A stretch of DNA of 64,000 nucleotides from Candidatus Uhrbacteria bacterium RIFOXYC2_FULL_47_19 (GCA_001791745.1 MGFG01000020.1:10712-74711); one strand, 5' to 3'; counted from the first letter of the stretch, positions 6,213 through 51,470 are shown. The notes: generated from the sequence alone by a model not told the origin. Numbers and translations are program-made.

Positions 6213-7391
6213 ATGCACAAAATAATAATGTTCATTGTCGTTTTGGCGATGACCCTGGCTCTGCCGGTCGCCTCCCGTGCGGCAGAGATGCGTAGTGGTG
6301 AAGCTGTCTCGATTAGTGTCAGCCAGATCATCGAAGAGAATCTCTATGCCGCTGGCGGGACGCTTTCGATGGACGGCGAAGTTCGTGGCGACGCCCATCT
6401 GCTCGGCGGAAATCTAACCGTAACCGGACCGGTGTCAGAGGACCTCACTGTGGCCGGCGGATCGCTGATTTTGCTCGGCCCGGTCGGTGACGACGTTCGC
6501 GTCGCCGGAGGCAGCATTACGCTCGGCAGCTCGGTTGGTGGAGAACTGGTTGTCGCCGGTGGTCAGATAACCACTACCCCCGGCCTGTCAGTAGTTGGTG
6601 ATACTGTTATCGCCGGTGGCAGTGTGGTCATCAAAGGCGTCTTCGCTGGAGATGTGACAGTCTATGCCGGCGATGTTCAGGTGGATGGCACCATCGGGGG
6701 CGGTCTCTTCACCACGGCGGAATCGGTCACCCTCGCGTCGGGCGCGGTCGTCAAGGGTGACTTCGCTCACGAAGGTCCGAAGGAGGCGAGTGTCGAGACC
6801 GGTGCCGTCGTTGATGGTGAGCAGACCTATACGCAACGGGATTTCGCGGCTGGCGTACCAGACAAGACTGATGAGTTGATACTCTGGGAATCTTTCGGCA
6901 AGATTTTCGGCGCAATGTTTATCTTCTTCGTGCTGGTGAAGTACCTGGCGTGCCTACTGGTTTCCCTGCTGGCGACTTGGCGGTTGCCGCATCTGTCTCA
7001 GGCCGTAGTCGGTCGTACTCTCAAACATTTTGGCATTGACTTATTGACCGGTTTGTTGATCTCAGTGGTCGCACCGATTGTCCTAGTGCTGCTGTACGTG
7101 ACGGTTGTCGGCTGGTTGGTGGCTTGCATCGTCATGGCAGTTTTAGCTTTAGCCGTCCTGGTTGGCGGCGTCTACTCCACCGTATCTTTTGGAGCTCTGG
7201 TTCGCAGAGTCTTCTCTAAAGGTAAAAAGGATTTTTCGGCCGACTGGAAGAGTTCTCTGCTCGGAACAACTCTACTCACTCTAGTCATACTGATCCCAAT
7301 AGTCGGTTGGCTGGTCGGACTGCTGTTCTTCCTAGCTAGCTTCGGCACCGTAGTTAGGCTGGGCTACGAAGCCCTGTTTCGCCGGCGCTAG
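6213..7391 (+). CDS. Signal-peptide protein with a bactofilin/CcmA-like beta-helical repeat domain and a C-terminal multi-pass TM region
   Basis: The N-terminus is hydrophobic. Repeats of the G-x-V/L-x-V-x-G type run through about 180 aa (LTVAGGSLILLGPVGDDVRVAGGSITLG...). The C-terminal 170 aa contain four to five hydrophobic helices. Confidence 0.65.
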   Translation: MHKIIMFIVVLAMTLALPVASRAAEMRSGEAVSISVSQIIEENLYAAGGTLSMDGEVRGDAHLLGGNLTVTGPVSEDLTVAGGSLILLGPVGDDVRVAGGSITLGSSVGGELVVAGGQITTTPGLSVVGDTVIAGGSVVIKGVFAGDVTVYAGDVQVDGTIGGGLFTTAESVTLASGAVVKGDFAHEGPKEASVETGAVVDGEQTYTQRDFAAGVPDKTDELILWESFGKIFGAMFIFFVLVKYLACLLVSLLATWRLPHLSQAVVGRTLKHFGIDLLTGLLISVVAPIVLVLLYVTVVGWLVACIVMAVLALAVLVGGVYSTVSFGALVRRVFSKGKKDFSADWKSSLLGTTLLTLVILIPIVGWLVGLLFFLASFGTVVRLGYEALFRRR

Positions 7392-10860: not shown

Positions 10861-11009
10861 GCGTCAGAATCAGTTCTTTAAAAAAGGCTTATTTATGAGG
10901 TAGCGCATTGGGCGTAAGGGCTATTTTTATGCCTATTGCGCTACCTCATGCAGAGGAAGCCGTTTGCCGGAGCGATTCCGGTAAATCCAAATATAGAAGG
11001 AGGATGACG

Positions 11010-11918
11010 ATGTCACAGACATTGATCACCAGCCGAGACCCGAAAGGTCTCCACGCAATCGGTCTCTTCGAGGCCGCCTACAACAAGTCCAAGCTCGACG
11101 AGGAACGCGCACAGCGGCTCAACGAGCGCGGTGGCGAACTGCAGGACGGGATCGCGAAGCTCATCGCTAAGCTGTCCCAGTCCAACCAGTACGTGAGTGA
11201 GGAAGTTCGTTCCAATTATACGTACCCGAAGGAGTACGAAGGGCCGAAGCCGATCAATGACCAGATCAAGGCGATCGCCAAGATTTTCGATCTCGACCCG
11301 AGCCACACCATCGAGTTCGCCAAGACCCTGCCGGAACTCCCGAACGGTGCCGAAGGATGGTTCGCGATTCCCTCGGTGGACGCACTGGCCAAGAAGCACT
11401 TCCCCGAAGTGACCGATCCGATCCAGAAGTACTGCCAGGCGGTCCAGATCGTTCACACCAAGATCGCCGACTCCCGGTCGTTCTACAACTACCGTGAGGG
11501 TCAGATCACGCCGGCGCAACTGCGGGTTCACGCTCGCACGGCGCACGCGCTGGATCTCATCTCCGAAACACAAGAAGCGAGCGACATCCTGATCGTCGCC
11601 GCCCAGCTAGGGCTTCGCCATCGCGGCAAGTCCAGCCGTCGGGCTCGTGAGGTCTTCGTGGAGGGCGAGTTCGGTCTCGGAAGTCTCGCAGTCGGTTCCA
11701 TCGTTCTCACTCATCCCGAACGGCTCGTCTGTTGGGAGGAACTGGACATGGATTGTTCCGGCGACGAGTTTTCTCCGGAGGCCGATGGCGACTTTTCTGA
11801 GTCTCCCGGCTTCGGCTTCATTGGCAACAAGGTCGAGTTCGGCACGCGCCTCGTTGACGGCCCGGACGTGGGCTTCGGTTCGGTGTCCGGCTTCCTCTCG
11901 CAGGAAATCGATCCTTGA
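11010..11918 (+). CDS. Hypothetical protein in a gene of elevated GC (about 60%)
   Basis: The ORF follows the RBS GAAGGAGG at 10996-11003, with the second ATG at good spacing. The product is acidic at the C-terminus and I recognised no family. Confidence 0.5.
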   Translation: MSQTLITSRDPKGLHAIGLFEAAYNKSKLDEERAQRLNERGGELQDGIAKLIAKLSQSNQYVSEEVRSNYTYPKEYEGPKPINDQIKAIAKIFDLDPSHTIEFAKTLPELPNGAEGWFAIPSVDALAKKHFPEVTDPIQKYCQAVQIVHTKIADSRSFYNYREGQITPAQLRVHARTAHALDLISETQEASDILIVAAQLGLRHRGKSSRRAREVFVEGEFGLGSLAVGSIVLTHPERLVCWEELDMDCSGDEFSPEADGDFSESPGFGFIGNKVEFGTRLVDGPDVGFGSVSGFLSQEIDP

Positions 11919-15419: not shown

Positions 15420-18400
15420 ATGAAACTCAGTCCATTTCTAAAAAGAGTATCTCGCCGACCGGCTGAAACTCTACTAACCTTAGTGCTTGTCATTGCGTCG
15501 AGCGGTCTAGGTTCGTTGATCGCTCCGTTGCCGGCTATGGCCGCCTCGACGATTACGGTCAGTACCAGTGGACTGATCAATGGTGGTTTTCCCGGGGCTC
15601 CGATTCCGGCCAGCTCACCGGCCAGCGCCGTACTGAAGTTGTCAGTGACGGCTTCTTCGGCCCTACAGACTCTCAATTCGGTTACAGTGAACTTTAGTGG
15701 TACTGGTTTGGTTCAGGCTGACCTGGCCGATATCGCTACTGATGATAGTTCCGGTGTTGCTTTATATGACGATGAAGGTGGTACAGCCGGAAACTTCGAT
15801 GGCACTGACTCGGTCATTACTCTGGCTGCCTCTCCGGATTGGACCGGTGAGACGACCAACATCACGCTGACACCGGCGACGCCAGTTCCATTAATCAGCG
15901 GTACACCGGTGATTTTTTATGTAGCCATTAGAACTTCAGCTTTGCTAGTCAACGATCATCGTATAGTCGCTTCCGTTCTAGCCAATGGAGTAGTAACTTC
16001 TGATGGTAGTGGTCCAGCTACTACCTTTAATGCTTTTGAATTACGGGCCGACACTGCTCCAGCACAGATTGTGTCGGTTGGTGGTTTTGTCGGTAGCGCA
16101 TCGGTTAATGTCAGATTTAATAAACCAGTACAAAGGGTTGGTGGTGGCAGTTTGATTGCAGCCAGCTTTACTTATGTAGATGGTGGTGGTGCTGCTCAGA
16201 CTATATCTTCTGTAGCTCATACCCCAGGTCAGGATTTTGCTACATTGACCATGAGTGCTGTTTTGGATGCAGGGGATATCGACGGCACTCCGGCGACTAT
16301 AGCCGCTGCTTCTAGTGCCATAGCTGACATGGGTGGCAATGTTATCGGAACCGATGCTGTGGAAATGGCCAGTGCAATCGAAATTTCTACTTCGACCATT
16401 CCGACAGCGATTATTGGAACGACCTACACCACGATTAGTCCACTGGTGGCCTTCTCGGCGATTGGTGGCACCTCTCCTTACATCTTTGAATCAGCCGGAG
16501 AGCCGGATACAGAGGTACTGACCAACGCTGGACTTTCTTTAGTTGATGATGGAGGTACTTACAAGATAACTGGTACGGTATTGAGCGTTCCGGGTAGTTA
16601 TCCTTTATACATTAGGGCTACAGATTCGGCCGGGACACCTCAGGAGGCGGTCCGGCGGTACAATCTGAACGTTGGTACGTCCGCTGGAGCAGTGCCGGGC
16701 GTTACTAGCGTTGTGCCGGGCGGTGCGCCATTAGGTGCGTCGTCTTTGGCAGTTGCAATTACGGGCTCTAATACTCATTTTTCTGGATCAAGCACGATTC
16801 AGTTTATAAGCGGAGGTTCGGCCGACGCCAACGTTACAGCTACAATTTCGTCGTCAACCACTACAACACTTAACCTTTCGGTTAGTGTAGCCGGGGGCGC
16901 CACTGTTGGGCCACACGATGTACGCGTTACGACCGGAGCCGAGATCGTCGAGATGCCGGGTGGCTTCGGTGTGTTTCCGGCCGGTGATAGTGGGTTAAAT
17001 CTCCAAAGTCCAACCGATGCCGCGACCGGCATATCGATACCTCCTACCTTCAACTTTAGCCCCAGCACTAACCCGTCAGCGGCCACTTACCGCGTTACAC
17101 TAAAGTCGACATCTAATTTTTCTGGGGCCGCTTTATGGGATTACGCCTTTCCTAAGCCGGCTGATGCAGAGAATAGCAATGGTAGCCACTGCAACTTGAC
17201 TGGCTGCAATGTGAACTATGGGGCCGGCTCATTCCGGATTATTACTCAGCCGACTCCGCTTGAGCCGAACACCACCTATTATTGGCAAGTGCGGACCTAC
17301 AGCCAGGCACCATCTGCTGTTAGTGACGCTGTGGCCCCGCTTGAAGGGACTCCAGTTAGAGGTTTCACTACGATTTCGTCGGTCATGGATATCATGCCGC
17401 CGAATATCATGCATCGGCCAGTCTTTCAGACTACGGCCAGCACAGACCTGACTTTGTTGGCTCGTGTCGATGATAACTTTGCCTCGCCAACCTCTACCCC
17501 AGCCCTGACAACTACGGTTAATTACTGTGTGGGTGTCGATTGCGATCCAGGGACCGGTACGCAGGCGAGTGGTACCTCGATCGGTAATGGATTTTTTACC
17601 TTCACTATTCCGGGTGCATCGGTTGGCATTGCCGGCACTATAGTTAGGTATTATCTTGGTGCCTCGGACGGCACTAATACGGCGATCTTTAGGGATATGG
17701 ATGAGACTCCGTTCCGGGTAACATCAATCGCCGCCGGTGTTGGTACTATTACTGGTTCAGTCGTCAATGATAGCGATGAATGTCCGGAAGGTATTCAAGG
17801 TGCCACGGTTTTCGCTGAAGGTACTGGTTTCATGACCACCACAGACGGATCGTGTGAATATACTTTGTCCGGACTTCCAACCGGTATCTATGACATCGTG
17901 GCCTTGAAGACTGGTTATGCTGACCGGATCATTAACGGCATACCAGCCGGCTCCACCAGCATAGTTTTCAGCCTGCCAATGGGTTTCGGTGGTGGTTTCG
18001 GCGGCGATGGCACCAGACCTCATGTCATGTTTACTGGTCCCGGTGAGAACTCGACTGGCATTCCAGGCGGCGATTCCTACTTCAAGGTGTTTGTGGCCTT
18101 CGATAAGCCCATGAGTCAATCTTCGATCACGGATACTGGTAATTTGACCATCAACGAGATTAATCCGGCTACAGGGGAGCTGACCAACATAACGTCAAAA
18201 GGAGACTGGGACTATTACGCCTCTTCCGCCGGTGTGGATCGTGTGCCGCCGGCTTCTAATATGGCGGTGTTTTCGTTGTCGCAGGTTGGTTGCGATGGAT
18301 CTCCTTGTACGCTAGGTGACGGCAAGACTATCGCTGTGATTGTGACCGACTCAGCTACCGACACAGCCGGCAATTCAGTCATGGGAAATCAGCCGGATGG

Positions 18401-21400
18401 TTCGTTCTCCTTCACTTTCTCGACTGGTACCACTTTCTCTGGAAGTTTCGGTGAGGGTGAGGTGTTTGGCTCTGGGGAGTTCATTCCGCCACATGTAATC
18501 GGTATGACTCCACCACCTGGTAGTCTTGATGTGCCAGTTGATCGAAGGGTTGTAGTTAGTTTCTCGGATGCCATGGCGGACGATACTATTGGAACCTATC
18601 TTCTTAAGAGTTACATCAAATTGTATTCAGTGTCTGGGGTGACTGAGACGGACGTTTCATCACTCATTAGTGCTACAACTCTCGACTCAGCCAAGAGGAA
18701 TGCAACTCTGACGTTAACCGGCAGTTTAGCTGCCTCGACCCGTTATCGACTCAAAGTGCTAGGTGGTGCTAAAGCAGCGACTGGACTGACAGTCGGACCA
18801 CCAGAGTCGAGTAGTGCAGTCATGTTCACTGGTGAGTTTAGAACTGGAACTGGCACCGATGTTGGTATACCGACAGTTAATGGGACTTTTCCAGACAATA
18901 CTGCGACCAATGTACCAGTTAATCTAAATGCGGTTAGTATCGGCTTTAGTCGAGATATGGACATGTCAACTATCTCGACAAGCACAGTTTATTTGTCGAT
19001 TGGTTCGACGGCAGTTAATGGTTCGGTTGAATATCGTGCCGCAGAGAGAACGGCCTATTTCGTACCACGTTCGGCACTTACTGCCAGTACTACCTACACA
19101 ATCAATGTGACGACCGGAGCTCAGGCTCTGAACGGAACAGCGATCGCTACAGCAGTAGCGCGCACCTTCACTACTGGTTCGGCCGACGTTTTGGCTCCGT
19201 CGATACAGTTCGGCAACGCTGATGATTTCTCGTTGGCAGTGACCTTCTCTGAGCCCATGAATGCCTCTCGGGCGACTGATACTATTAACTTCACAGCTAG
19301 TGTATTGAAGCCGGCTAATTACGTTCTCAAGTACGCCACCATGGGTGAGGATTCTTCTGCTGGTACGGTCCTGACTGTTCCGGCAGCAGCGACCTTTAGT
19401 TACGATCAGGTAACCAACACAGTCAAAATCGCCGGCTATCATGCCGACGCGATCGATCCGGCGACTCTGCGTGGGAAGGAACTTTATGTCGCAATCACTG
19501 GAGTTAAGGACCTGTCCGGAAATTCGATCACGACTGATGATGGCGCGAACACGGCTAGAATGATGATTTTGAATAGCGCCACTACTCAAGGGGCTCTCGG
19601 TCCGATGGGTATGACCGGCGACTCCTTCTCGGATCAAGGCGGGTTCACACCTGACAATTTTGATTCTGGCACTTTCGGTTTTGCACCACAGGCTGAGGTC
19701 CGTCCATTCAATACCATGCCCGGACAGCTCACGATCTATGGCATACGCTTGCCGATCTCCCGGCAGATTCCGGCTTCTGGGGCTGTTGTTGTGACCTTCC
19801 CTATTGGCTTCGACGTTTCGGCCGCCAGACAGGATGTCAACAGTCCGATGCGCCAGGACTTGAATGGTCCAGGAACGGGAAATGTGACCTTTAAGTGCGC
19901 CACAGCCGGTGCGCCGACCGGAGCATCTTGTTCCGGCACGGCCAACGCCGACGATGCTGGGGTGGCCCAGGGTGGACTAGCTGGCGATGGTGTGGTGGTC
20001 GACACGGCCTCACGCAGCGTCAAGATTTACCTTTCTGCAGCGACCAACGTCGAAGGACATGATTTCTTGACCATCGATATCGCCGGAATTAGGAATACGA
20101 CCGTACCCAAGGACATGAACACTTCGGGTTACACGGCTGATATTAAGACCAAGAACGGCACTACACTTCTAGAGACTGCCACTTCGATGCCATTTTTTAT
20201 TCAGTCTGGTGGTACGGGATCGTTCACTTTGGGCGGTACTATAACTGCGACCGGCAACGTCTCTAGTGGCACTATGCAGGTCTACCTAATGTCGCCGCTC
20301 ACCGGACCGCTCGAGACCACTTCGACTAACTTCTCTGGTGGTGAGACTGCAACTTACAGCTTTACCGGACTTCCAGCCGGTGAATTCATGATTTCGACCG
20401 ATCAGCTGGTGCTGATCGATGCGGCTGAATATGTCGGTAAGGCCAATCCGGAACGGATCGGACTCACAGCCAACAAAACTTACAATTTCACCATGGCCAG
20501 TGCTTCGTCCGGTGGGACTGTGGTTACGGTCAACTTGACCGGTCCAGCTAATGAACCGTTGGACGTGTTTGCTGGTTCGCCGACTGGATTTCGCGTCAAA
20601 CAGGTGACATTGAACGGTGGAGGAACTGGTAGTACTACACTCAATCTACCGAACGGCGAGTGGAACATTGGTGTCGGCCCGCAGACACCTAAGGGTTTCT
20701 CCGGTCCGCCGCCGGCACCGTCTTACCTACCGCCACGTAATAAACAGGCCACTATTGCCAATCCAGTCTGTACAGTTGACGGCACAGTGGGTTGTACCAT
20801 CGCTTTTGCCTTAACAACCTCGGATAAGACCATTCGCGGTTTGGTTAAGGATGGTTCCGGCAAGGTCATGGCCAACGCTGAGGTGTTCGCCTACTCGCCT
20901 AACGGTGGTTTCGGTACCAATGCTACAACCGCTACTAACGGTGCGTTTACACTGAACGTAGTCAGTGGCAGCTACGTTGTTGGCGCATTTATTCCGGGCA
21001 TGCCGACCTCTAAGGAAGTGCCAGTAGTGGTAACGGACCATGCTACGACCTATCTGTTAATAGATGGATCGTCGACAGCGATTACACCAGCCGCTGCGGC
21101 TACTTCCTTTATCCTTAAGGTTGCTAAGCCGGACTACACCATCTCCGGACGTGTGACCGACGGCACGAGTATTGTGCAGGGTGCTTCAGTCTACGCTTAT
21201 CGAACCAATGGTCCGGGTCATGCCGATGTGATGACCGATAGTTCCGGTAACTACACTTTGTACGTCGGCGCCGGAACCTGGAACGTTGGCGCGTTCCTAC
21301 CGCAGTACGGTCGACTATCTGAACAGTCGGTGACCGTCTCGACCGCCAATGTCACTAGCATCAACTTTTCTCCATCCCAAACCGGCACCGGAACTTTCTA

Positions 21401-23960
21401 CACTGTTTCCGGTACGGTGACCTCGGGTGGTACACCAGTATCTGGCGCCTTTGTCCGGCTCATGGGTAACAACACCAACAATGAGGTGATGACTGGTGTC
21501 GACGGCACTTACAGCATGAAGGCCCCGTCCTGCGCCACGGCAGGTTGTTACACACTTAAGGCCTTCGCACCGAGCATTGGCGAGTTCCCGCCGCTCGCAG
21601 CCTTCAGTGTGACTAGTGACACAGCTGGCAAGGACTTTACACTTGCCGCACCTCGAACCTTGACCATAACTTTTTCCGCATCGGTCGCTCGCGGTTTCGT
21701 CGATATGTTCGCCACGAATGGTTCAGGTGCGCGCATCGACGTCTCTAATTCGACGGTTGCCACGTTGACCCTACCGGATGGTAATTATCGGGTTCGTGTG
21801 GACGTACCTGGAACGGCGATCGGTCCGTCTAATATATCTGGCGACGGTTACAACAGTACCACTGGTGTGTTCACAGTTTCGGCGGCCAACACTGCTCTGA
21901 CAGTCACATTGCCGACTCGTCGGACCATCACTGGTAAAGTGACTGACAGCACGGACAACATTGCCAATGCTTGGGTCGAGATTGTCAATCCGACTACCGG
22001 TGTCCACTTTGGTACGCAGACCAATTCGACCGCCGGTCCGGATACTAACTTCAGTTTCAGCGTGGCTGATGGTACTTACTTCATCAATGCGATGAAGCCC
22101 GGGTACTTCCGACAGCCGACTACGATCATTGTCGGAGCTGACACCACGACCCAGACTCTGATTATGACTGCAGCCACAACTACCATTGCCGGACAGGTAC
22201 TGATCGGCGCAACTGGTGCACCCAACTCTTTCGTCCGTGGTGAAAAGATGGGTGGTGGCTTCTCCGGTACTCAAGCCGATGCTAACGGTAACTATGTACT
22301 ACCAGTCGATTCTGGAGAGTGGAAGATTTACGCTGTAGCTGAGGGTTATCAGGAGGCCGGTTACGCCAGCAATCCGATCGACGTTAGTAGTGGTTCGGTA
22401 ACGGGTAAAAATATTACCCTCACCACAGCCGTCAACATGGCCTCACCTAGGTCCAGACCGATCACACCATCCTCGGGTGGAACCATCGACGACCAAGACT
22501 CCGGTCTGAGACTCAATGTGCCGGCCAACGCCTTGGGCACATCTAACTCATCCGGAACCTTAACAGCTAGGGAAACCAACAACGTCCGCTCTACTGATAC
22601 TGCCTACCTGGTCATGGTCTACGACTCGCAGACCGAGACTTACGTTCCGGCAGCCAAGGAACTGTCGGCCACAGATAGCGATGGCAATCCGATTACCAAT
22701 CTTGAGGGTTCGGTCAGTTTGGAGATGGACTACACCATCGCTGAGCTGGCAGCCACTCGGTCAGCGCTCGACTCGTCGATTGATACTCGGACCGAGGCAG
22801 ATATGCTGACCATGGCTTACTGGGATGCGACCAATCAGAGCTGGACACCGCTCCCTAGCACGGTGACTTACCGTGATTCCGATGGGGACATTGTCAACGA
22901 GCCGGAGGAGGACCTATCGAATGTCTCGATCGTTACGGTGTCGGCGACCACAAACCACTTCTCGCTCTATGCCCCGATCGTTTCGACTGATCCGTCAGCA
23001 CCGAGCACTCCGTCTGGTTTGGCAGCGAGCGCAACCAGCACCTCTCAGATAAATCTGAGCTGGACACAGACTTCCGGTGCTACTGGTTACGACATTTATC
23101 GGAGCACCACCGTGGGTGGCACTTATTCTCGTCTGGGTAGCGAGCCGACCGTCAGTTCCGGTTCGACGGTCACCTACAGTGACACTGGTCTCTCGGCCTC
23201 GACGACCTACTATTATAAGATTTCGGCGATCAACGCGAACGGTGAGTCGGCGTCGACATCTGCAGTCAGTGCCACAACCAGTAGCGCAGGTGGAGGCGGC
23301 GCAGGTGGAGGTGGCGGTTCAAGCGGTTCGGTTATTCCGCCAACTACCACACCGGTCACGGATGCGTCCGACCCCGACAGTTTCGTTGATAACTCATCTT
23401 CATTCCCGACCGGAACACATGAGCGTGTTGCTTACAATGAGGCCGAAATGGCGGCTCCGTCTTCAGACACTACTGGAGTCGGTGTCTACAGCTCTGAAGT
23501 AGCAATCTTCAATACACCAACCATCGATGTCGATAAGGGTATTTTGCCTCCACCAGCCGACGTCTGGTTACCTTGTGTCGGCGGCGGTCTGATCAAGACC
23601 CAGGATGGTTCGGCTGTCTACTACTGTGGCAAGAATGGACGACGCTACGTCTTCCCTCATCAGAACATTTACTCGACCTGGTACGGCAATTTCGACAGTG
23701 TCGAGTCAGTTCTAAATGAAGACCTAGCTGCAGTGCCATTGGCTGGCACCGTCACCTATCGTCCGGGCGTCAAGATGGTTAAGATTCAGTCCGATCCCAA
23801 GGTTTACGCTGTGTCTAGAAACGGTCTACTTCGCTGGGTGACCAGTGAAGAGATCGCTACTGAGCTTTATGGTCAGAATTGGAATCGACAGATTGATGAT
23901 GTAAATCCGGCCTTCTTCTTCTCCTACACGATCGGTGATCCGATCGAGGCAGCGGAGTAA
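15420..23960 (+). CDS. Giant secreted/surface protein (2,846 aa) with Ig-like, carboxypeptidase-regulatory-like and FN3 domains
   Basis: The N-terminal signal peptide has a hydrophobic core followed by AMAAS. Multiple SbsA/Big-type Ig-like repeats are present, such as PxVxxxxPxxGSxDVPVDRRVVVSFSDAMADDTI. CarboxypepD_reg-like units are present, such as TISGRVTDGTSIVQGASVYAY...SGNYTL. An FN3 domain is visible at LSWTQTSGATGYDIYRS...YYYKISAINANGES, followed by a Gly-rich linker. The C-terminal repeat module is shared with the 4494..6182 gene product. Confidence 0.85.
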   Translation: MKLSPFLKRVSRRPAETLLTLVLVIASSGLGSLIAPLPAMAASTITVSTSGLINGGFPGAPIPASSPASAVLKLSVTASSALQTLNSVTVNFSGTGLVQADLADIATDDSSGVALYDDEGGTAGNFDGTDSVITLAASPDWTGETTNITLTPATPVPLISGTPVIFYVAIRTSALLVNDHRIVASVLANGVVTSDGSGPATTFNAFELRADTAPAQIVSVGGFVGSASVNVRFNKPVQRVGGGSLIAASFTYVDGGGAAQTISSVAHTPGQDFATLTMSAVLDAGDIDGTPATIAAASSAIADMGGNVIGTDAVEMASAIEISTSTIPTAIIGTTYTTISPLVAFSAIGGTSPYIFESAGEPDTEVLTNAGLSLVDDGGTYKITGTVLSVPGSYPLYIRATDSAGTPQEAVRRYNLNVGTSAGAVPGVTSVVPGGAPLGASSLAVAITGSNTHFSGSSTIQFISGGSADANVTATISSSTTTTLNLSVSVAGGATVGPHDVRVTTGAEIVEMPGGFGVFPAGDSGLNLQSPTDAATGISIPPTFNFSPSTNPSAATYRVTLKSTSNFSGAALWDYAFPKPADAENSNGSHCNLTGCNVNYGAGSFRIITQPTPLEPNTTYYWQVRTYSQAPSAVSDAVAPLEGTPVRGFTTISSVMDIMPPNIMHRPVFQTTASTDLTLLARVDDNFASPTSTPALTTTVNYCVGVDCDPGTGTQASGTSIGNGFFTFTIPGASVGIAGTIVRYYLGASDGTNTAIFRDMDETPFRVTSIAAGVGTITGSVVNDSDECPEGIQGATVFAEGTGFMTTTDGSCEYTLSGLPTGIYDIVALKTGYADRIINGIPAGSTSIVFSLPMGFGGGFGGDGTRPHVMFTGPGENSTGIPGGDSYFKVFVAFDKPMSQSSITDTGNLTINEINPATGELTNITSKGDWDYYASSAGVDRVPPASNMAVFSLSQVGCDGSPCTLGDGKTIAVIVTDSATDTAGNSVMGNQPDGSFSFTFSTGTTFSGSFGEGEVFGSGEFIPPHVIGMTPPPGSLDVPVDRRVVVSFSDAMADDTIGTYLLKSYIKLYSVSGVTETDVSSLISATTLDSAKRNATLTLTGSLAASTRYRLKVLGGAKAATGLTVGPPESSSAVMFTGEFRTGTGTDVGIPTVNGTFPDNTATNVPVNLNAVSIGFSRDMDMSTISTSTVYLSIGSTAVNGSVEYRAAERTAYFVPRSALTASTTYTINVTTGAQALNGTAIATAVARTFTTGSADVLAPSIQFGNADDFSLAVTFSEPMNASRATDTINFTASVLKPANYVLKYATMGEDSSAGTVLTVPAAATFSYDQVTNTVKIAGYHADAIDPATLRGKELYVAITGVKDLSGNSITTDDGANTARMMILNSATTQGALGPMGMTGDSFSDQGGFTPDNFDSGTFGFAPQAEVRPFNTMPGQLTIYGIRLPISRQIPASGAVVVTFPIGFDVSAARQDVNSPMRQDLNGPGTGNVTFKCATAGAPTGASCSGTANADDAGVAQGGLAGDGVVVDTASRSVKIYLSAATNVEGHDFLTIDIAGIRNTTVPKDMNTSGYTADIKTKNGTTLLETATSMPFFIQSGGTGSFTLGGTITATGNVSSGTMQVYLMSPLTGPLETTSTNFSGGETATYSFTGLPAGEFMISTDQLVLIDAAEYVGKANPERIGLTANKTYNFTMASASSGGTVVTVNLTGPANEPLDVFAGSPTGFRVKQVTLNGGGTGSTTLNLPNGEWNIGVGPQTPKGFSGPPPAPSYLPPRNKQATIANPVCTVDGTVGCTIAFALTTSDKTIRGLVKDGSGKVMANAEVFAYSPNGGFGTNATTATNGAFTLNVVSGSYVVGAFIPGMPTSKEVPVVVTDHATTYLLIDGSSTAITPAAAATSFILKVAKPDYTISGRVTDGTSIVQGASVYAYRTNGPGHADVMTDSSGNYTLYVGAGTWNVGAFLPQYGRLSEQSVTVSTANVTSINFSPSQTGTGTFYTVSGTVTSGGTPVSGAFVRLMGNNTNNEVMTGVDGTYSMKAPSCATAGCYTLKAFAPSIGEFPPLAAFSVTSDTAGKDFTLAAPRTLTITFSASVARGFVDMFATNGSGARIDVSNSTVATLTLPDGNYRVRVDVPGTAIGPSNISGDGYNSTTGVFTVSAANTALTVTLPTRRTITGKVTDSTDNIANAWVEIVNPTTGVHFGTQTNSTAGPDTNFSFSVADGTYFINAMKPGYFRQPTTIIVGADTTTQTLIMTAATTTIAGQVLIGATGAPNSFVRGEKMGGGFSGTQADANGNYVLPVDSGEWKIYAVAEGYQEAGYASNPIDVSSGSVTGKNITLTTAVNMASPRSRPITPSSGGTIDDQDSGLRLNVPANALGTSNSSGTLTARETNNVRSTDTAYLVMVYDSQTETYVPAAKELSATDSDGNPITNLEGSVSLEMDYTIAELAATRSALDSSIDTRTEADMLTMAYWDATNQSWTPLPSTVTYRDSDGDIVNEPEEDLSNVSIVTVSATTNHFSLYAPIVSTDPSAPSTPSGLAASATSTSQINLSWTQTSGATGYDIYRSTTVGGTYSRLGSEPTVSSGSTVTYSDTGLSASTTYYYKISAINANGESASTSAVSATTSSAGGGGAGGGGGSSGSVIPPTTTPVTDASDPDSFVDNSSSFPTGTHERVAYNEAEMAAPSSDTTGVGVYSSEVAIFNTPTIDVDKGILPPPADVWLPCVGGGLIKTQDGSAVYYCGKNGRRYVFPHQNIYSTWYGNFDSVESVLNEDLAAVPLAGTVTYRPGVKMVKIQSDPKVYAVSRNGLLRWVTSEEIATELYGQNWNRQIDDVNPAFFFSYTIGDPIEAAE

Positions 23961-24126
23961 GTTGGTGTGAATTAGATAGAACGGCCCCAGAGTATGGGGC
24001 CGTTCTTGTTAGATAAGACAATCTACTTCTTCTCGTTCCTACAACTAAATTTGGTTGTAGTTGCCAAACCTTTGTCGATTTAGGATCATGTCTAAGTGAC
24101 ATAGTTTAAACCTTTGCCCAATTAAT

Positions 24127-25260
24127 ATGGATTTTGGAACAGTTGTTATTTGGATCGTTGTTTTGGTCGTTGTAGTTGGTTTCGGTGGTCGTTATATTTG
24201 GCGCATGAAAGTGCGTCGTTTAGTCGGTTTTTCTCAAGAGGAGTTCGTCCGTGATTTGACCGAGGAGGCCAGGAATGGACATCTTGATCCGGTCATTGGG
24301 CGCAATGAAGAGGTGGAAAGAATTATTAATATTTCTGCTCGTCGCACTAAAAATAATCCATTGCTGATTGGTCCACCTGGCGTGGGTAAAACTGCGATCG
24401 TTGAGGGTTTAGCTAGGCGAATTATTGACGGTGACGTTCCGGCGCAGCTTTTAGGAAAGCGGGTAATGGCTCTCAATTTAGGTGAACTTATTTCTGGCAC
24501 TAGTTTACGCGGTGAGTTGGAGGGTAGATTTCAAAAATTTATCGCCGATTTAGAAAGTCGACCGAAGATGACTATTGTGTTTATTGATGAGATTCACATG
24601 ATTTCGCAGGCTCGTGGCACTGAAGGTGGTTTGGATTTAGCGGACATGATCAAACCTGCATTGGCTCGTGGAGATGTCTCGGTGATTGGAGCTACGACTT
24701 GGGATGAGTATCAGCGTACACTTAAATCTGATCCGGCCTTGGATCGAAGATTCCAGCCGGTTTTAATTAGTGAACCTTCAGTCGAAGAAACACTTAGTAT
24801 TCTGCGTGGAGTTAAGGGTGTTTATGAGGAACATCATGGTGTGTTGATTAGTGATGAGGCTCTACAGCGTGCCGTTGAAATGACAACCAAAATGGTTACC
24901 GATAGGTATTTACCAGACAAGGCTTTGGATGTTATTGATGAGGCTGCAGCCAAGGTTTCGATTGATACTTCACCCGGACAATTGGCCTCCCTTGGTGTGG
25001 TTGATGTAGCCGCGAAAAGAAAAGTAGTTGAGCGTATGAGTAAAGAGGCTAAGTTATTAGCGGTAGAGATAGAACATTTAGAAAAACTACGTGGGTCATT
25101 TCCTGATGATTCATCTATTCGACTGGCTAGAGAGGAGCTCGGCCGACATTTGAAACAGATTGAAAATGAACGCAAAACTGTTCGGTCCGATAGTGAACGG
25201 TCGACAGTTACAGCTGCTGATATCGACGCTACGATCGAGTCATGGGGAGTGCAAAGTTGA
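24127..25260 (+). CDS. Membrane-anchored AAA+ ATPase homologous to ClpB/ClpA nucleotide-binding domain 1 only
   Basis: An N-terminal TM helix (VVIWIVVLVVVVGFGG) is present. The sequence is then colinear with ClpB NBD1: GRNEEVERIINISARRTKNNPLLIGPPGVGKTAIVEGLA (Walker A), IVFIDEIH (Walker B) and ALDRRFQPV. The start of the M-domain coiled coil follows, but there is no NBD2. Confidence 0.8.
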   Translation: MDFGTVVIWIVVLVVVVGFGGRYIWRMKVRRLVGFSQEEFVRDLTEEARNGHLDPVIGRNEEVERIINISARRTKNNPLLIGPPGVGKTAIVEGLARRIIDGDVPAQLLGKRVMALNLGELISGTSLRGELEGRFQKFIADLESRPKMTIVFIDEIHMISQARGTEGGLDLADMIKPALARGDVSVIGATTWDEYQRTLKSDPALDRRFQPVLISEPSVEETLSILRGVKGVYEEHHGVLISDEALQRAVEMTTKMVTDRYLPDKALDVIDEAAAKVSIDTSPGQLASLGVVDVAAKRKVVERMSKEAKLLAVEIEHLEKLRGSFPDDSSIRLAREELGRHLKQIENERKTVRSDSERSTVTAADIDATIESWGVQS

Positions 25261-27329
25261 AGGAATTAAATAGGATATCAATTGGGACCGTGGGACTGAC
25301 GGTAGTTACTGCGGTCCTTCTTTTTGTTCCATTACCATTGTTTTGTCGAATAGTAGTTGTGGTGATGTTTTTAGGTTGGTTGGGTTTTCGTTTGGGTCGA
25401 TTTTTAGTGGGTAGTCGTGAGGGTGTTATAACTAGGCTTGTCTTTGGTTTAATGATTGTCTTGTCGTGGTTAGTGGTTAGTCAGTCAATAGTTTATTACC
25501 TCGATCGAATATCAAGATTCAGTCTATTAGTAGGTCTGTTACCCTTGGTCTTTTTTGCTATCCACCGTTTTAATCTCACTGAGACCACTAATCAGACTAT
25601 CATCAAGCCAAAATCATCGATTTGGAGTCGTTGGTTGTCTATAGGTATTCTGGTTGGCGATGTGGTTTTATTTTTTTCTTTCTTATCTGTACGTACCGAC
25701 GAAGCACTGCGAAGTCCATGGGAGGTAGTCTCTTGCTCAGCTTTATTAGCCTTTGTGTCTGTGACTTGGATGTTATTGTTGTTGTGTCGCGAGCCGGACG
25801 CCCCGTTTAAGCGTTCTTTGACTGCGTTACATTTGTTCGTTGCTTATTGTTTATCGGAGACAGTCATGTCACTTGGTTTCGGTTACGATCCCTTTATTCA
25901 TCGTACGGCCGAGGCACACATTGCAGAATTCGGAAATCTTTTACCGAAAAGTCCGTACTATATCGGGCATTACGTATTAATAGTTGCGCTACATTGGTTG
26001 TCCGGTCTTTCAGTAGATGTAATTGATCGATGGTTAGTGCCATTCCTGGCTCCACTAACTTTTCCTTGGGTAGCTAGTTTTGGTTTGAAAAAAGTTTGGG
26101 GCATGAAAGGAAGTGTCGAGCTTTGGATGCCTCTGATACTATTTTTGCCCATGCTGCCGCTGACCTTCACTGTGCCACATGCTCTGACGGTCGTGTTTCT
26201 GCTTTGGTTGGTCTTTTTAGCACCGACAGTCATAAGTTCTAGTCCACTACGTTCATTGGTTATCGGTCTATCTGTGTCGGCTATGATGATTCATCCGCTA
26301 TTGGGTGCAGTGGCAGTCGGATTAATAGCATCATTGTTTTTGTGTCATCGATTCCGGTTCGGTGGGTTGCTATCTGTGATTATCAATGCGATTTTGTTGC
26401 CAATCTTATTTTTCATTCATAACTGGTTAAAAGGCGACTTGCCATTTAATTTTGTCGGACTGTTATCGGATTGGGAACGTTTTATCGCTCTTTTTCGGAA
26501 TCCTTTTTTCTCTGACCTAGAGACGTCTTTTTCGCTTTTGGATTTACTGTATATGTACAGAATGATTATGCCAGCTATTTTTGTGGCTATAGTCGTGATT
26601 GGTGTTATTTTTTTGGTACATCGAAAGATGAAATCATCGGTGATTCAAGCCTATATTTTGACAGCCGTCGGTCTTCTGTTAGCCATCTTTGTTCTGAGTA
26701 CCAGTGTGACGCTATCTGGTATTGTGCCTGGAGAGCAATTGGAATTCTCTTTGAGATTGAAACATGCATTTGGGGTGCTGTTACTTCCATTGTTTTTCTT
26801 TGGTCTAAAATCTCTACTAGATCGTTATCTTAGAGATTCGTTAACTGCTACGGTAGCTGGTTTACTGTTGGTCGTAGCGATAGTAGCTTCGATCAGTTGG
26901 TATCTGACGTATCCACAAGCGAACCATATAGCCAACCGTTCTGGTTGGTGTCTGGGTCGCGCTGATGTCGAAACTATCGAGATAATTGCCAAAGAGGATA
27001 ACGGTCGTCCGTATTTGGTTCTATCCAATCAGATGCTGTCTGTGGCCGCCCTGCGAACCAATGGCTTTGATAATTTTTTCTATGCCTTACCGGTTACTGG
27101 TCGTACTTATGAGTATTACTTGGCTATTTCTCATTCACGACGCAATAGGGGAGTGTTCGAAGAAGCTTTCACTGAGTTTGGGGTAGCACGAGTCTTTTAT
27201 GTGGTGCATGACTATGAATCTGATTTTCATTCTATTGTGGACCAATTGGAGTCTATTTCTGATCAAAGTTGGGTTGTAGCCGATGGCCGAGCCTTTGTTT
27301 TTCTTTTTGAAGATATGGCTTATAATTAG
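25242..27329 (+). CDS. Large polytopic membrane protein (695 aa, at least 12 TM helices)
   Basis: The protein is hydrophobic for about 560 aa and has a soluble C-terminal domain of about 130 aa. It overlaps the upstream AAA+ gene by 19 nt. Confidence 0.65.
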   Translation: MGSAKLKELNRISIGTVGLTVVTAVLLFVPLPLFCRIVVVVMFLGWLGFRLGRFLVGSREGVITRLVFGLMIVLSWLVVSQSIVYYLDRISRFSLLVGLLPLVFFAIHRFNLTETTNQTIIKPKSSIWSRWLSIGILVGDVVLFFSFLSVRTDEALRSPWEVVSCSALLAFVSVTWMLLLLCREPDAPFKRSLTALHLFVAYCLSETVMSLGFGYDPFIHRTAEAHIAEFGNLLPKSPYYIGHYVLIVALHWLSGLSVDVIDRWLVPFLAPLTFPWVASFGLKKVWGMKGSVELWMPLILFLPMLPLTFTVPHALTVVFLLWLVFLAPTVISSSPLRSLVIGLSVSAMMIHPLLGAVAVGLIASLFLCHRFRFGGLLSVIINAILLPILFFIHNWLKGDLPFNFVGLLSDWERFIALFRNPFFSDLETSFSLLDLLYMYRMIMPAIFVAIVVIGVIFLVHRKMKSSVIQAYILTAVGLLLAIFVLSTSVTLSGIVPGEQLEFSLRLKHAFGVLLLPLFFFGLKSLLDRYLRDSLTATVAGLLLVVAIVASISWYLTYPQANHIANRSGWCLGRADVETIEIIAKEDNGRPYLVLSNQMLSVAALRTNGFDNFFYALPVTGRTYEYYLAISHSRRNRGVFEEAFTEFGVARVFYVVHDYESDFHSIVDQLESISDQSWVVADGRAFVFLFEDMAYN

Positions 27330-27367: not shown

Positions 27368-27595
27368 ATGACAAGGACAACCACTAGCACTAAGACTAAG
27401 GTCGTGGTAGGTGTTGTAGCTGCGGGCTTACTAGCAGGTTTCGGCCTTTGGGGTATCTATAATTTCCAAATGAAGAGGAAACAGGTGGACCTTAAGCCTA
27501 AAGTCGTGGCTCCACCAGGATACGGGGCAGATGTAATTGATTCTGGTTACGGTACTCCGGGTTATACCCCTGGCTATACTCCAGGTTACAAATAG
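27368..27595 (+). CDS. Small single-TM protein with C-terminal GYGTPGYTPGYTPGYK repeats
   Basis: One TM helix (VVVGVVAAGLLAGFGLWGIY) is followed by a PGY(T) repeat tail. An RBS-like AAAGGGAA lies upstream and a terminator follows. Confidence 0.45.
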   Translation: MTRTTTSTKTKVVVGVVAAGLLAGFGLWGIYNFQMKRKQVDLKPKVVAPPGYGADVIDSGYGTPGYTPGYTPGYK

Positions 27596-27615
27596 ACCCT
27601 CTTGAGAAAGAGAAA

Positions 27616-27641
27616 GGTCGGATAGAGATCCGGCCTTTTTA
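27616..27641 (+). terminator. Rho-independent terminator
   Basis: The hairpin GGTCGGAT-agag-ATCCGGCC is followed by TTTTT. Confidence 0.6.
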
Positions 27642-27675
27642 GTTTCTCTTGATAAGGCTATTATGTTTCCGCAAT

Positions 27676-28242
27676 ATGCCAATCCAAAAAGTCTCCAAGA
27701 ATCGACTACTGCTACATGCCTGCTGTGCGCCGTGTAGTATTGCGGTTATTAATGAATTAAGAGTTGAGTATGAGCTTTACGTGCTTTTCTTTAACCCCAA
27801 TATTCATCCTGAGGCCGAATATCTAAAACGTAAAAGTGAAGTGGTTCGGGTTTGTCGAGAGTGGAAAGTATCCATGATTGATTTAGATTATGAATCAACA
27901 CTCTGGGAGGAATTAGTTGCACCAGTGTCTCAAAAAAAGGAAGGTGGCCCTCGCTGTTCAACTTGTTTCCGTTTACGTTTAGCTCGAACTGCAGATTATG
28001 CCAAGGAACATGGATTCGTTTATTTTGCCACAAGCTTAACTATGGGTCGACGCAAGGATTCAACTGTGATTAATGCTATCGGGCGGACTATTGCAGTACA
28101 GTTTGGATTAAAGTTTTTGGACACTAATTGGAAGAAAGGTGGACGATGGGAGACAGGTCGTCGATTGACTGAGGAATGGGGGATTTATCGGCAGTCCTAT
28201 TGTGGTTGTAGATTTTCGTTGGAAGAGATGGCTAAGCGTTAA
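27676..28242 (+). CDS. queH: Epoxyqueuosine reductase QueH (DUF208)
   Basis: The sequence reads LLLHACCAPCS...FFNPNIHPEAEY...CSTCF...YCGC, which is the QueH Cys-motif pattern. The start is at MPIQK. Confidence 0.8.
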   Translation: MPIQKVSKNRLLLHACCAPCSIAVINELRVEYELYVLFFNPNIHPEAEYLKRKSEVVRVCREWKVSMIDLDYESTLWEELVAPVSQKKEGGPRCSTCFRLRLARTADYAKEHGFVYFATSLTMGRRKDSTVINAIGRTIAVQFGLKFLDTNWKKGGRWETGRRLTEEWGIYRQSYCGCRFSLEEMAKR

Positions 28243-51302: not shown

Positions 51303-51470
51303 CTTCTATATATAATAAGAAGGTCCGAATACGGACGCGCTCAGTCGGGCGCGTTCGTCATTTATCAGGATTTGAGACTCCAAAACAACTATTTTAAGCT
51401 TGAAGCATGGACGGTTTGGCTTTTATGGGTATATATTGAGGCCGTCAGTCACGGATTTATTAGAACCTAC

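Follow-up and report, generated by a model that had tools for sequence, protein, structure and literature searches.

A conserved Patescibacteria gene cassette encoding a membrane-anchored, D1-only Clp ATPase, a candidate GT-C-like membrane protein and a PGY-repeat small protein

A three-gene cassette was identified in the genome of Candidatus Uhrbacteria bacterium RIFOXYC2_FULL_47_19 (Patescibacteria), within a 64-kb stretch of DNA referred to here as the window. Its first gene encodes a AAA+ ATPase that is a complete Clp/Hsp100 D1 module (the first nucleotide-binding domain, NBD1), with a transmembrane (TM) helix in place of the N-domain and without D2 (NBD2). The second encodes a polytopic membrane protein that probably has a GT-C-like glycosyltransferase fold, its placement in a named GT-C family not being established, and the third a small protein with C-terminal (P/G)GY repeats (hereafter the PGY protein). 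That the three-gene cassette is real and conserved we regard as close to certain. The ATPase family is tied, with or without the GT-C-like gene, to genes for surface proteins that begin with a Lys/Thr-rich tail (K/T-tail proteins). Both kinds of protein, the AAA+ unfoldase anchored in the membrane and the GT-C-like enzyme, are known; what joins them here is a system-level association that had gone unnoticed. Full-text literature searches yielded no description of the ATPase family or of the three-gene cassette. An original prediction, made for the first two genes from the sequence alone, had recognised no characterised system with such an arrangement.

The ATPase is identical to A2480_03110, which is annotated as hypothetical. 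Pfam assigned an AAA domain (residues 79-209) and AAA_lid_9 (218-285) and gave no match to Clp_N (PF02861), residues 1-38 consisting of the TM helix and a linker. The NCBIfam ClpB model aligned residues 38-352 to its positions 157-453 of 853, indicating that only D1 is present, with a score of 345.5 bits against a cut-off of 1232.1; the ClpA (315.6 vs 993 bits) and ClpV (322 vs 885 bits) models likewise matched the D1 part only. Alignment to sequences in the Protein Data Bank (PDB) placed the protein on E. coli ClpB 163-437, and its residues 39-373 on B. subtilis ClpC 165-483, a span that takes in all of D1, with the short middle domain and the strand and helix that end the small subdomain. 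The AlphaFold2 (AF2) model (mean predicted local distance difference test, pLDDT, 88.5) comprises a helix at residues 3-31, a 7-residue low-confidence linker, the large and small D1 subdomains starting from residue 39, and a hairpin; its best Foldseek matches were D1 of ClpC and ClpB. The protein thus lies outside the ClpB/ClpC/ClpA class, since D2 and the N-domain are missing and the scores fall under the curated cut-offs, with the D1 motifs and the middle-domain hairpin present. It carries no Peptidase_M41 domain and has no homology to the classical AAA clade, its best matches being Clp D1. The original prediction had described a protein colinear with ClpB/ClpA NBD1, bearing the same Walker A and B motifs, lacking the N-domain and NBD2 and starting with a TM helix, and the open reading frame (ORF), the motifs, the D1 alignment, Pfam, hydropathy, AF2 and tblastn all agree with that description. 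It had seen only the start of the M-domain coil, and here it needs amending: D1 is complete, including the hairpin at residues 292-353 and the terminal strand and helix.

A hydropathy scan gave a single TM segment in the ATPase (residues 3-21), and the R/K cluster that follows it predicts an N-terminus outside the membrane and an ATPase domain in the cytoplasm. Patescibacteria homologues with this architecture number in the hundreds; database homologues are numerous at 315-390 aa and 43-87% identity, and those at 64-87% identity are also 377 aa long. In an alignment of 35 family members, each begins with a hydrophobic helix and stops at a shared D1 boundary ('V-T-x-x-D-[IV]...W'). The Arg fingers R207/R208 and the pore-loop residues R128, G129 and E132 are invariant in this alignment, and the sensor T190/T191 is nearly so. 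At the aromatic position of the pore loop, 23 members have Y, 7 have F and 5 have L; the Leu form was found in the window and in L001, L005, L006 and L007, which make up one subclade, and in the more distant P0047 (L numbers denote loci and P numbers proteins). About half of the family, the members of 320-340 aa, have the hairpin deleted.

The idea that a sequencing error or a frameshift has cut short a normal clpB or clpC has nothing in its favour except the similarity to ClpB D1. We rule this artefact or pseudogene reading out and leave it a negligible likelihood. The protein stops exactly at the D1 boundary, dozens of assemblies made independently repeat the architecture, and its nearest homologues are equal in length. 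A tblastn search of all frames of the window with a two-ring relative found D1 only, at 24214-25014, and the next ORF is the conserved membrane protein. Two of the outcomes that the original prediction had named as undermining or refuting it, a truncated clpB and an NBD2 encoded downstream in another frame, are therefore set aside by the equal-length homologues, the 35-member alignment and the tblastn result.

The conservation of the cassette was followed in two samples. The membrane-protein family was represented by 80 of 467 loci from species-representative genomes, retrieved with the motif G[FY]G[FY]DPF[IL]H, whose names are Patescibacteria-type or uninformative (for example 'uncultured Gammaproteobacteria'); L001 was obtained separately, through the membrane-protein homologue P0003. 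The ATPase-first sample consists of nine informative loci reached through the ATPase alone (L101 and L165-L172, the latter by eight individual homologue look-ups). In an ATPase-seeded metagenome scan, the matches listed were nearly all ordinary two-ring ClpB/ClpC; among them only L101 holds a family ATPase as a complete ORF, that of L085, a 2.3-kb contig, being partial. In a neighbour-joining tree of 89 membrane-family members, all ATPase-linked membrane proteins fell into one clade of 21 leaves (clade A), and the ATPase gene is adjacent in 16 of the 21. It immediately precedes the membrane gene in the same orientation, with an overlap or a gap of at most 70 nt, in L001, L005, L006, L007, L008, L012, L032, L047, L051 and L052, upstream but divergent in L009 and L010, with a further divergent pair in L101, and downstream and convergent in L014. 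The pair is thus adjacent, and usually overlapping, in at least 16 species-level genomes and survives rearranged orientations, inversion included, a favourable outcome of the neighbourhood check that had been proposed together with the prediction.

The predicted overlap between the ATPase stop and the start of the membrane gene is also present, spanning 19 nt from the ATG or 4 nt from the alternative TTG (Table 1). An identical 19-nt overlap was found in L001, L005 and L006, and overlaps of 4-59 nt in L007, L032, L047, L052, L169, L170 and L174 (a locus described below). The ATPase gene of L052 (1745-2663) and the GT-C-like gene of L101 (2740-4837, minus strand) are each split into two overlapping ORFs, which could be frameshifts, pseudogenes or assembly errors.

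The membrane protein is identical to A2480_03115, also annotated as hypothetical. Pfam and NCBIfam gave no match for it or for 20 homologues at E-values up to 1, and the family sequence profile run against PDB sequences returned only noise. Its AF2 model (pLDDT 87.7; predicted template-modelling score 0.89) and hydropathy together indicate about 15 hydrophobic membrane helices, where about 12 had been predicted, followed by a C-terminal alpha/beta domain (residues 557-695) that matches the soluble C-terminal domain of the prediction. Two lines of evidence point to a GT-C-like fold. The top five Foldseek matches in the PDB were GT-C enzymes (PglB, with E 1.3e-3 and probability 1.0, and AftA), with ArnT, ALG9 and AglB lower, and an hhalign comparison with 24 PMT_2-type proteins encoded beside distant family members gave 82% probability (E 1e-5, 289 columns). 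The question raised earlier, whether the partner is a GT-C enzyme, a flippase or a domain of unknown function (DUF), is thereby answered in part, in favour of a GT-C-like fold, though at a low TM-score and outside any Pfam family. The membrane family comprises 1,489 clusters at 50% identity, 1,024 of them with E < 1e-30, and its 150 best-scoring members are 618-773 aa long; it is sizeable, sharply bounded, and absent from Pfam and NCBIfam.

Residues invariant throughout the membrane family are P159-W160, G212, D216, F218, H220, E498, R505 and several Tyr and Pro residues of the C-terminal domain; S/T158, preceding P-W, and H351 also count among the invariant residues. The motif G[FY]G[FY]DPF[IL]H sits in the loop 209-240, which is outward-facing by loop-charge prediction, and we take it to be unlike the catalytic motifs of the characterised GT-C families. 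Loop charges place the RKMK loop (461-464) and an R/K stretch at about 184-192 inside, and this puts both the RSPW and the DPFIH loop, together with the net-acidic domain at the C-terminus, on the predicted outer side, so that the conserved residues 158-P-W, D216, H220, H351, E498 and R505 would all face outward.

About 68 other membrane-family loci lack the ATPase. The genes right beside the membrane gene there (n = 120) are enriched for GT4 glycosyltransferases (24), CDP-alcohol phosphatidyltransferases (14), PMT_2 proteins (12) and DUF3160 proteins (11). Such neighbours are only indirect evidence that the donor might be a polyprenyl-phosphate-linked sugar. In distant clades (L003, L011-L084) the CDP-alcohol phosphatidyltransferase is about 207 aa long, and a second paralogue of 700-790 aa is often found nearby. 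This distant-clade gene set presumably resembles those of phosphatidylinositol-mannoside and lipomannan-type pathways.

The PGY protein has the N-terminal tail MTRTTTSTKTK (TRTTTSTKTK after the Met) and five GY motifs in its C-terminal tail (PPGY...SGYGTPGYTPGYTPGY); neither Pfam nor NCBIfam matched it. The same design recurs beside clade-A genes, in proteins of 63-142 aa (176-375 aa in L080, L045 and L050) that contain 4-14 GY motifs, mostly as P/G-G-Y. At least 18 of the 21 clade-A members have a PGY gene beside them. It adjoins the clade-A gene in L001, L005-L009, L012, L014, L015, L021, L032, L045, L047, L050, L080, L101, L169 and L170, while L010, L051 and L052 have versions that are degenerate or truncated. 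The sole further locus is the short contig L085, in which a PGY ORF lies beside the partial ATPase gene. When a PGY ORF was defined by at least four xGY within 50 residues, 20 distinct loci contained one, all of them clade-A or ATPase loci, compared with none of about 150 other fetched loci. A profile search of a 5.8-billion-protein database returned 38 PGY homologues of 64-218 aa, unnamed or labelled 'hypothetical'. An independent start from P0173 (28% identity) led to L174, where a PGY gene (88 aa) is followed by an ATPase (328 aa) and by a GT-C-like protein of 638 aa that matches the family profile at E 1e-142. The PGY gene precedes the ATPase gene in both L169 and L174, so that the order is permuted and the gene is kept. 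Where a clade-A locus has no ATPase gene next to it, the PGY repeats form part of larger, Cys-rich proteins of 176-375 aa (L045 2592-3707, L050 4630-5754, L080 5360-5887), and few Lys and Arg residues are left in the N-terminal tail of L045 and L050 (MAMSVSTQSATATASK).

We favour, with some reserve, the PGY protein as a partner or substrate of the GT-C-like enzyme. Its N-in/C-out topology was assigned chiefly from its likeness to the large K/T-tail proteins described below. An N-out arrangement that would offer the Thr-rich tail as glycosylation target was judged unlikely: the tail has 3-7 basic residues, and in the large proteins that share it the C-terminal domains are clearly extracellular. 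The repeats of some orthologues (L009, L170) lack Thr and Ser, leaving Tyr as the sole conserved hydroxyl residue; O-Tyr glycosylation is therefore our leading guess for a modification of this protein.

Table 1 Features of the cassette and its surroundings in the window
Feature	Position	Strand	Basis or remark
Membrane-anchored single-ring Clp/Hsp100 D1-only AAA+ ATPase, 377 aa	24127..25260	+	ORF, Pfam, ClpB/ClpC D1 alignment, AF2, Foldseek
N-terminal TM anchor helix of ATPase, residues 3-31, hydrophobic core 5-21, then R/K cluster	24133..24219	+	hydropathy, AF2, 35 homologues
Walker A GPPGVGKT, residues 82-89	24370..24393	+	G85, G87, K88, T89 invariant in family
D1 pore loop GTSLRGE, Leu at ClpB Tyr251 position	24496..24516	+	alignment to ClpB
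Walker B IVFIDEIH, residues 150-157	24574..24597	+	D154, E155 invariant in family
Short ClpC-type M-domain coiled-coil hairpin, residues 292-353	25000..25185	+	AF2 helices 292-324 and 329-353 (antiparallel); ClpC alignment
Overlap of ATPase stop and membrane-gene start, 19 nt from ATG at 25242	25242..25260	+	TTG at 25257 as alternative start gives 4 nt (TTGA)
Putative GT-C-fold glycosyltransferase-like polytopic membrane protein, 695 aa, without Pfam/NCBIfam model	25242..27329	+	AF2, Foldseek, hhalign
Invariant motif G-F-G-Y-D-P-F-I-H (D216, H220), candidate catalytic or metal site	25875..25901	+	family alignment; loop charges
C-terminal soluble alpha/beta domain, residues 557-695, predicted extracytoplasmic, conserved Tyr/Pro	26910..27326	+	AF2; 11 K/R vs 19 D/E; follows in-to-out TM helix
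PGY protein, 75 aa: K/T-rich N-tail, one TM helix, C-terminal (P/G)GY repeats	27368..27595	+	AAAGGGA upstream of ATG
Intrinsic-terminator-like hairpin, 13-bp stem then TTTTT, closing the three-gene operon	27611..27640	+	
C-terminal domain of 2846-aa surface protein, about 115-125 aa, without Pfam match	23613..23957	+	blastp

The original prediction had suggested that the first two genes encode a membrane-embedded remodelling or export machine. In such a binary arrangement the ATPase would dock through its TM helix on the polytopic protein and power export or flipping, or else remodel or regulate it, the small ORF and the K/T tails being incidental. The overlap of the two genes in most loci that carry both, and their continued adjacency after inversion (L009, L010, L014, L101), fit this arrangement. 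However, the GT-C-like gene is adjacent in only three of the nine ATPase-first loci (L101, L169, L170) and absent from the other six, 5 of the 21 clade-A loci have no adjacent ATPase, about 70 further members of the membrane family lie in glycan clusters without an ATPase, and the PGY gene accompanies the membrane gene more constantly than the ATPase does. GT-C enzymes, moreover, are not known to us to need ATP. We therefore consider a binary machine quite improbable. What stands of the predicted two-gene system is the conserved pair; it is incomplete in leaving out the more constant third gene, and the ATPase dispenses with the membrane gene in most of the ATPase-first loci. Remodelling at the membrane stays plausible, whereas an export machine formed by the pair finds no specific support, and the polytopic partner instead probably has a GT-C-like fold with its conserved residues predicted to face outward.

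A second association was found with K/T-tail genes, in which the K/T-rich tail is followed by an Ala/Val/Gly-rich TM helix. Such genes are the most constant neighbours of the ATPase, and one is adjacent in 7 of the 9 ATPase-first loci, as in L166 (587 aa), L167 (407 aa), L171 (432 and 524 aa, the latter with CARDB) and L172 (442 aa, CARDB). In clade A, large K/T-tail proteins are encoded directly upstream of the ATPase in L009 (563 aa), L010 (572 aa), L012 (686 aa), L014 (568 aa) and L047 (897 aa, with beta-helix/PMP repeats), and in L170 a 590-aa K/T-tail protein is encoded divergently from it. The large proteins carry domains of extracellular type (CARDB, beta-helix/PMP repeats, Ig-like), and Pfam and NCBIfam gave nothing on K/T-tail proteins beyond weak CARDB, Kre9 and beta-helix matches. 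The inferred cytoplasmic tails are 10-20 residues long and the hydrophobic segments 20-23. A hidden Markov model (HMM) of the K/T tail, trained on 24 N-termini, was run against the six-frame translation of the window and 172 loci at E < 1e-3. It matched 22 ATPase loci and, with L174 added on a later check, 23 of 25, compared with 2 of 69 ATPase-less Patescibacteria loci (both clade A) and none of about 79 ordinary ClpB loci (Fisher p = 1.7e-17); it gave no further match elsewhere in the six-frame translation of the window. A 2846-aa secreted protein encoded nearby in the window has a conventional signal peptide, which indicates that the K/T tail is not the generic signal of the organism. In L171 (6989-9917), two consecutive K/T-tail proteins follow the ATPase.

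This co-location bears on the possibility that the ATPase is a generic quality-control dislocase, a protease-less FtsH or a bacterial Msp1 for any damaged or mislocalised membrane protein, whose place in an envelope operon reflects co-regulation only. An N-terminal TM helix joined to an AAA+ ring with a pore predicted to face the membrane would suit that role, and the ATPase family is widespread in Patescibacteria, with varied neighbours. Since L165 also encodes a full-length Clp (907 aa), the family supplements such an enzyme and does not take its place. Tracking one class of substrate is not, however, what one would expect of a housekeeping enzyme, and the specific co-location with a single N-terminal type (23/25 vs 2/69) makes this reading, too, hard to sustain; we count it among the improbable ones.

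The reading that we prefer, tentatively and at slightly less than even confidence, is that the cassette is a three-gene cell-envelope operon with two-sided action on signal-anchored proteins. GT-C enzymes work on the extracytoplasmic face of the membrane and use lipid-linked donors. The GT-C-like enzyme would accordingly modify the extracytoplasmic PGY repeats at the outer face from a lipid-linked donor, and O-Tyr glycosylation of the repeats would produce a glycopeptide anchored by a TM helix. The D1 ring of ClpB and ClpC has its substrate-entry face covered by the N-domain. Because the TM anchor replaces this N-domain, a hexamer of the ATPase would have its entry face turned towards the membrane, in the geometry of FtsH and Msp1. 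The D1 ring would then grip the K/T-rich cytoplasmic N-tails of N-in, C-out proteins and pull, and the anchor would be extracted or cleared, as part of turnover, of release after cleavage, or of quality control of unmodified substrate. That the ATPase acts on K/T tails we judge an even matter; that its action is extraction rather than targeting is a possibility we hold with more doubt. FtsH and Msp1 offer the precedent of membrane-anchored AAA+ machines working on membrane proteins (PMC7949044, PMC12793716).

Several points weigh against the two-sided operon. Every function proposed here is deduced from the fold, the predicted topology and the genes nearby. The structural likeness to GT-C enzymes is weak (TM-scores of about 0.31-0.37), and the membrane family has neither a Pfam GT-C match nor a sequence-profile match to the PDB. 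The five clade-A loci without an adjacent ATPase have none within 6 kb, and two ATPase loci (L165, L168) have no K/T-tail gene. The K/T-tail HMM was trained on its own positives, the ATPase loci, so that the counts obtained with it test specificity and not discovery rate. Basic residues flank the TM helix of the PGY protein on both sides, which makes its topology ambiguous under the positive-inside rule. On the side of the ATPase, Leu at the aromatic position of the pore loop may weaken substrate threading in the window subclade, and we know of no robust self-hexamerisation of D1-only Clp constructs. Finally, extraction of a protein with a large or glycosylated outside part is mechanically implausible unless its anchor is first cleaved.

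The last difficulty would not arise if the K/T tail and Ala-rich helix formed a dedicated, cleavable signal of a specialised signal-peptide pathway, similar to the KxYKxGKxW signals of accessory Sec, with the ATPase as receptor, targeting factor or signal-peptide clearer, since no retro-translocation of large domains would be needed. AxA-like, Ala-rich stretches end many of the hydrophobic segments, the cargo domains are typically secreted ones, and a Peptidase_M50 (site-2 protease) gene lies near the ATPase in L172 (8581-9255), two genes downstream of it. Against this, hydrophobic segments of 20-23 residues suggest an anchor more than a signal, and cleavage would leave almost nothing of the small PGY proteins. 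We hold such a pathway to be unlikely.

An anti-phage defence module built around the AAA+ ATPase was also considered, as AAA+ ATPases are common in defence systems and weak, generic P-loop matches to TRIP13 and IetA models were obtained. It was rejected, and we give it very little credence: the PADLOC matches are generic (E 1e-5 to 1e-3, in the P-loop region only), the other two proteins were unmatched, the neighbours are surface proteins and housekeeping genes, and the cassette is vertically conserved within its clade.

Among known systems, the closest relatives of the ATPase are the D1 rings of ClpC and ClpB, with which it shares about 50% identity, Walker A and B, the Arg fingers, the pore-loop motif, AAA_lid_9 and a short ClpC-like hairpin; unlike them it has no Clp_N, D2 or ClpP-docking loop and carries a TM anchor instead. 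We know of no genomic linkage of FtsH or Msp1 to a substrate class together with a GT-C-like enzyme. In organisation, the ATPase resembles FtsH and Msp1/ATAD1 (PMC7949044, PMC12793716) in that a TM anchor at the N-terminus leads into a single AAA+ ring, the entry face is predicted on the membrane side and the inferred substrates have short cytoplasmic tails beside a TM helix. It differs from FtsH and Msp1 in belonging to the Clp D1 clade, not to classical AAA, and in lacking an FtsH-type protease domain.

The nearest two-ring relatives are uncharacterised, TM-anchored Clp proteins (P0098, P0109 and P0137, one of them labelled Eremiobacterota), whose D1 is 55-58% identical to that of the window ATPase. 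They have an N-terminal Zn-ribbon (missing in some) and a TM helix, no Clp_N, and no hairpin or M-domain, and they differ from the window ATPase in keeping D2. P0110, P0117, P0140 and P0141 also belong to this set, which shows no obvious ClpP loop. The two-ring gene of L173 (6001-7935) follows a SIMPL-domain gene after a 5-nt gap, and no K/T-tail, PGY or GT-C-like gene was present at L173, the one two-ring context examined.

With the GT-C families (PglB/AglB, ArnT, AftA, PMT/PMT_2), the membrane protein shares a polytopic core followed by a C-terminal domain, predicted here to be extracytoplasmic, and its conserved acidic and His residues are predicted to face outward; unlike the named families, it has no Pfam or NCBIfam GT-C match, and its TM-score is at most 0.37. 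The accessory Sec system (SecA2/Y2, KxYKxGKxW signals) is a conceptual analogue, as it encodes a dedicated signal, an ATPase and glycosyltransferases together with surface cargo. It differs in that there is no homology, SecA2 is not a AAA+ protein, glycosylation is cytoplasmic and the signals are others. A precedent for bacterial Tyr O-glycosylation of surface proteins is also available, in the WsfB system of Paenibacillus alvei. WsfB is a transferase of the O-antigen-ligase/Wzy_C type, not GT-C-like, its acceptor is an S-layer protein and not a PGY peptide, and we know of no AAA+ partner for it. In that system, Tyr O-glycans are moved from a lipid carrier to the S-layer protein outside the membrane (PMC2943079).

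Upstream of the cassette, the window encodes the 2846-aa surface protein (15420..23960), with carboxypeptidase-regulatory-like, Big_5 and fn3 domains. Its C-terminal domain recurs (blastp E 1e-22 to 1e-35) in L012 (324-2384), L015 (11519-13519), L045 (2064-2606, minus strand), L050 (4121-4663, minus strand) and L080 (4775-5341, minus strand), and is also present in the L006 orthologue; in L012 it is carried by the 686-aa K/T-tail protein. It forms either the C-terminus of large proteins or stand-alone ORFs of 180 aa, and was found only in clade-A loci and in none of about 150 others, which points to a functional link between the giant protein and the operon. The giant protein is probably a separate transcription unit, and probably a client or ligand of the cassette product. 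The G+C content drops from 0.52-0.54 over its gene to 0.42-0.43 over the three-gene operon, changing at about position 24000 of the window; this step may reflect only the Ala/Gly/Thr-rich composition of the surface protein.

Patescibacteria, also known as the Candidate Phyla Radiation (CPR), account for much of bacterial diversity and are mostly uncultured and host-attached. To our knowledge, almost nothing is known of how CPR cells build their envelope or display very large surface proteins. The cassette brings together three components: the membrane-tethered, D1-only Clp/Hsp100 architecture, previously undescribed; the GT-C-like family of about 1,500 clusters, for which Pfam and NCBIfam have no model; and an N-terminal tag defined by its sequence, together with a PGY-repeat peptide, both linked in the genome to the ATPase and the GT-C-like family. 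If the two-sided operon is correct, the ATPase would be a bacterial, Clp-derived counterpart to FtsH and Msp1, the chemistry of protein glycosylation involved might be new, and annotators could recognise a whole class of CPR surface proteins. In a wider and speculative extension, which we think rather less probable than the operon itself, Patescibacteria would have a dedicated ATP-dependent pathway for proteins with a K/T tail and Ala-rich TM helix, recognised by the Clp D1 ring; in one branch, a Tyr-glycosylated PGY peptide would serve as surface anchor for proteins with the C-terminal domain of the 2846-aa neighbour. A peptide-anchored glycan of this kind could, if the extension is true, replace lipoglycans in organisms unable to make their own lipids.

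Elsewhere in the window, long ORFs of 336-1258 aa without a Pfam match at E 1e-4 lie at 2633-4240, 4494-6182, 6213-7391, 10908-11918, 54808-56256 and 56302-60078, and SecA is encoded at 51372-54281. Directly 3' of the operon is a gene for QueH (epoxyqueuosine reductase; PF02677, E 5.5e-60) at 27649-28242, which occupies the same position in the closest relative, L006 (8293-9063).

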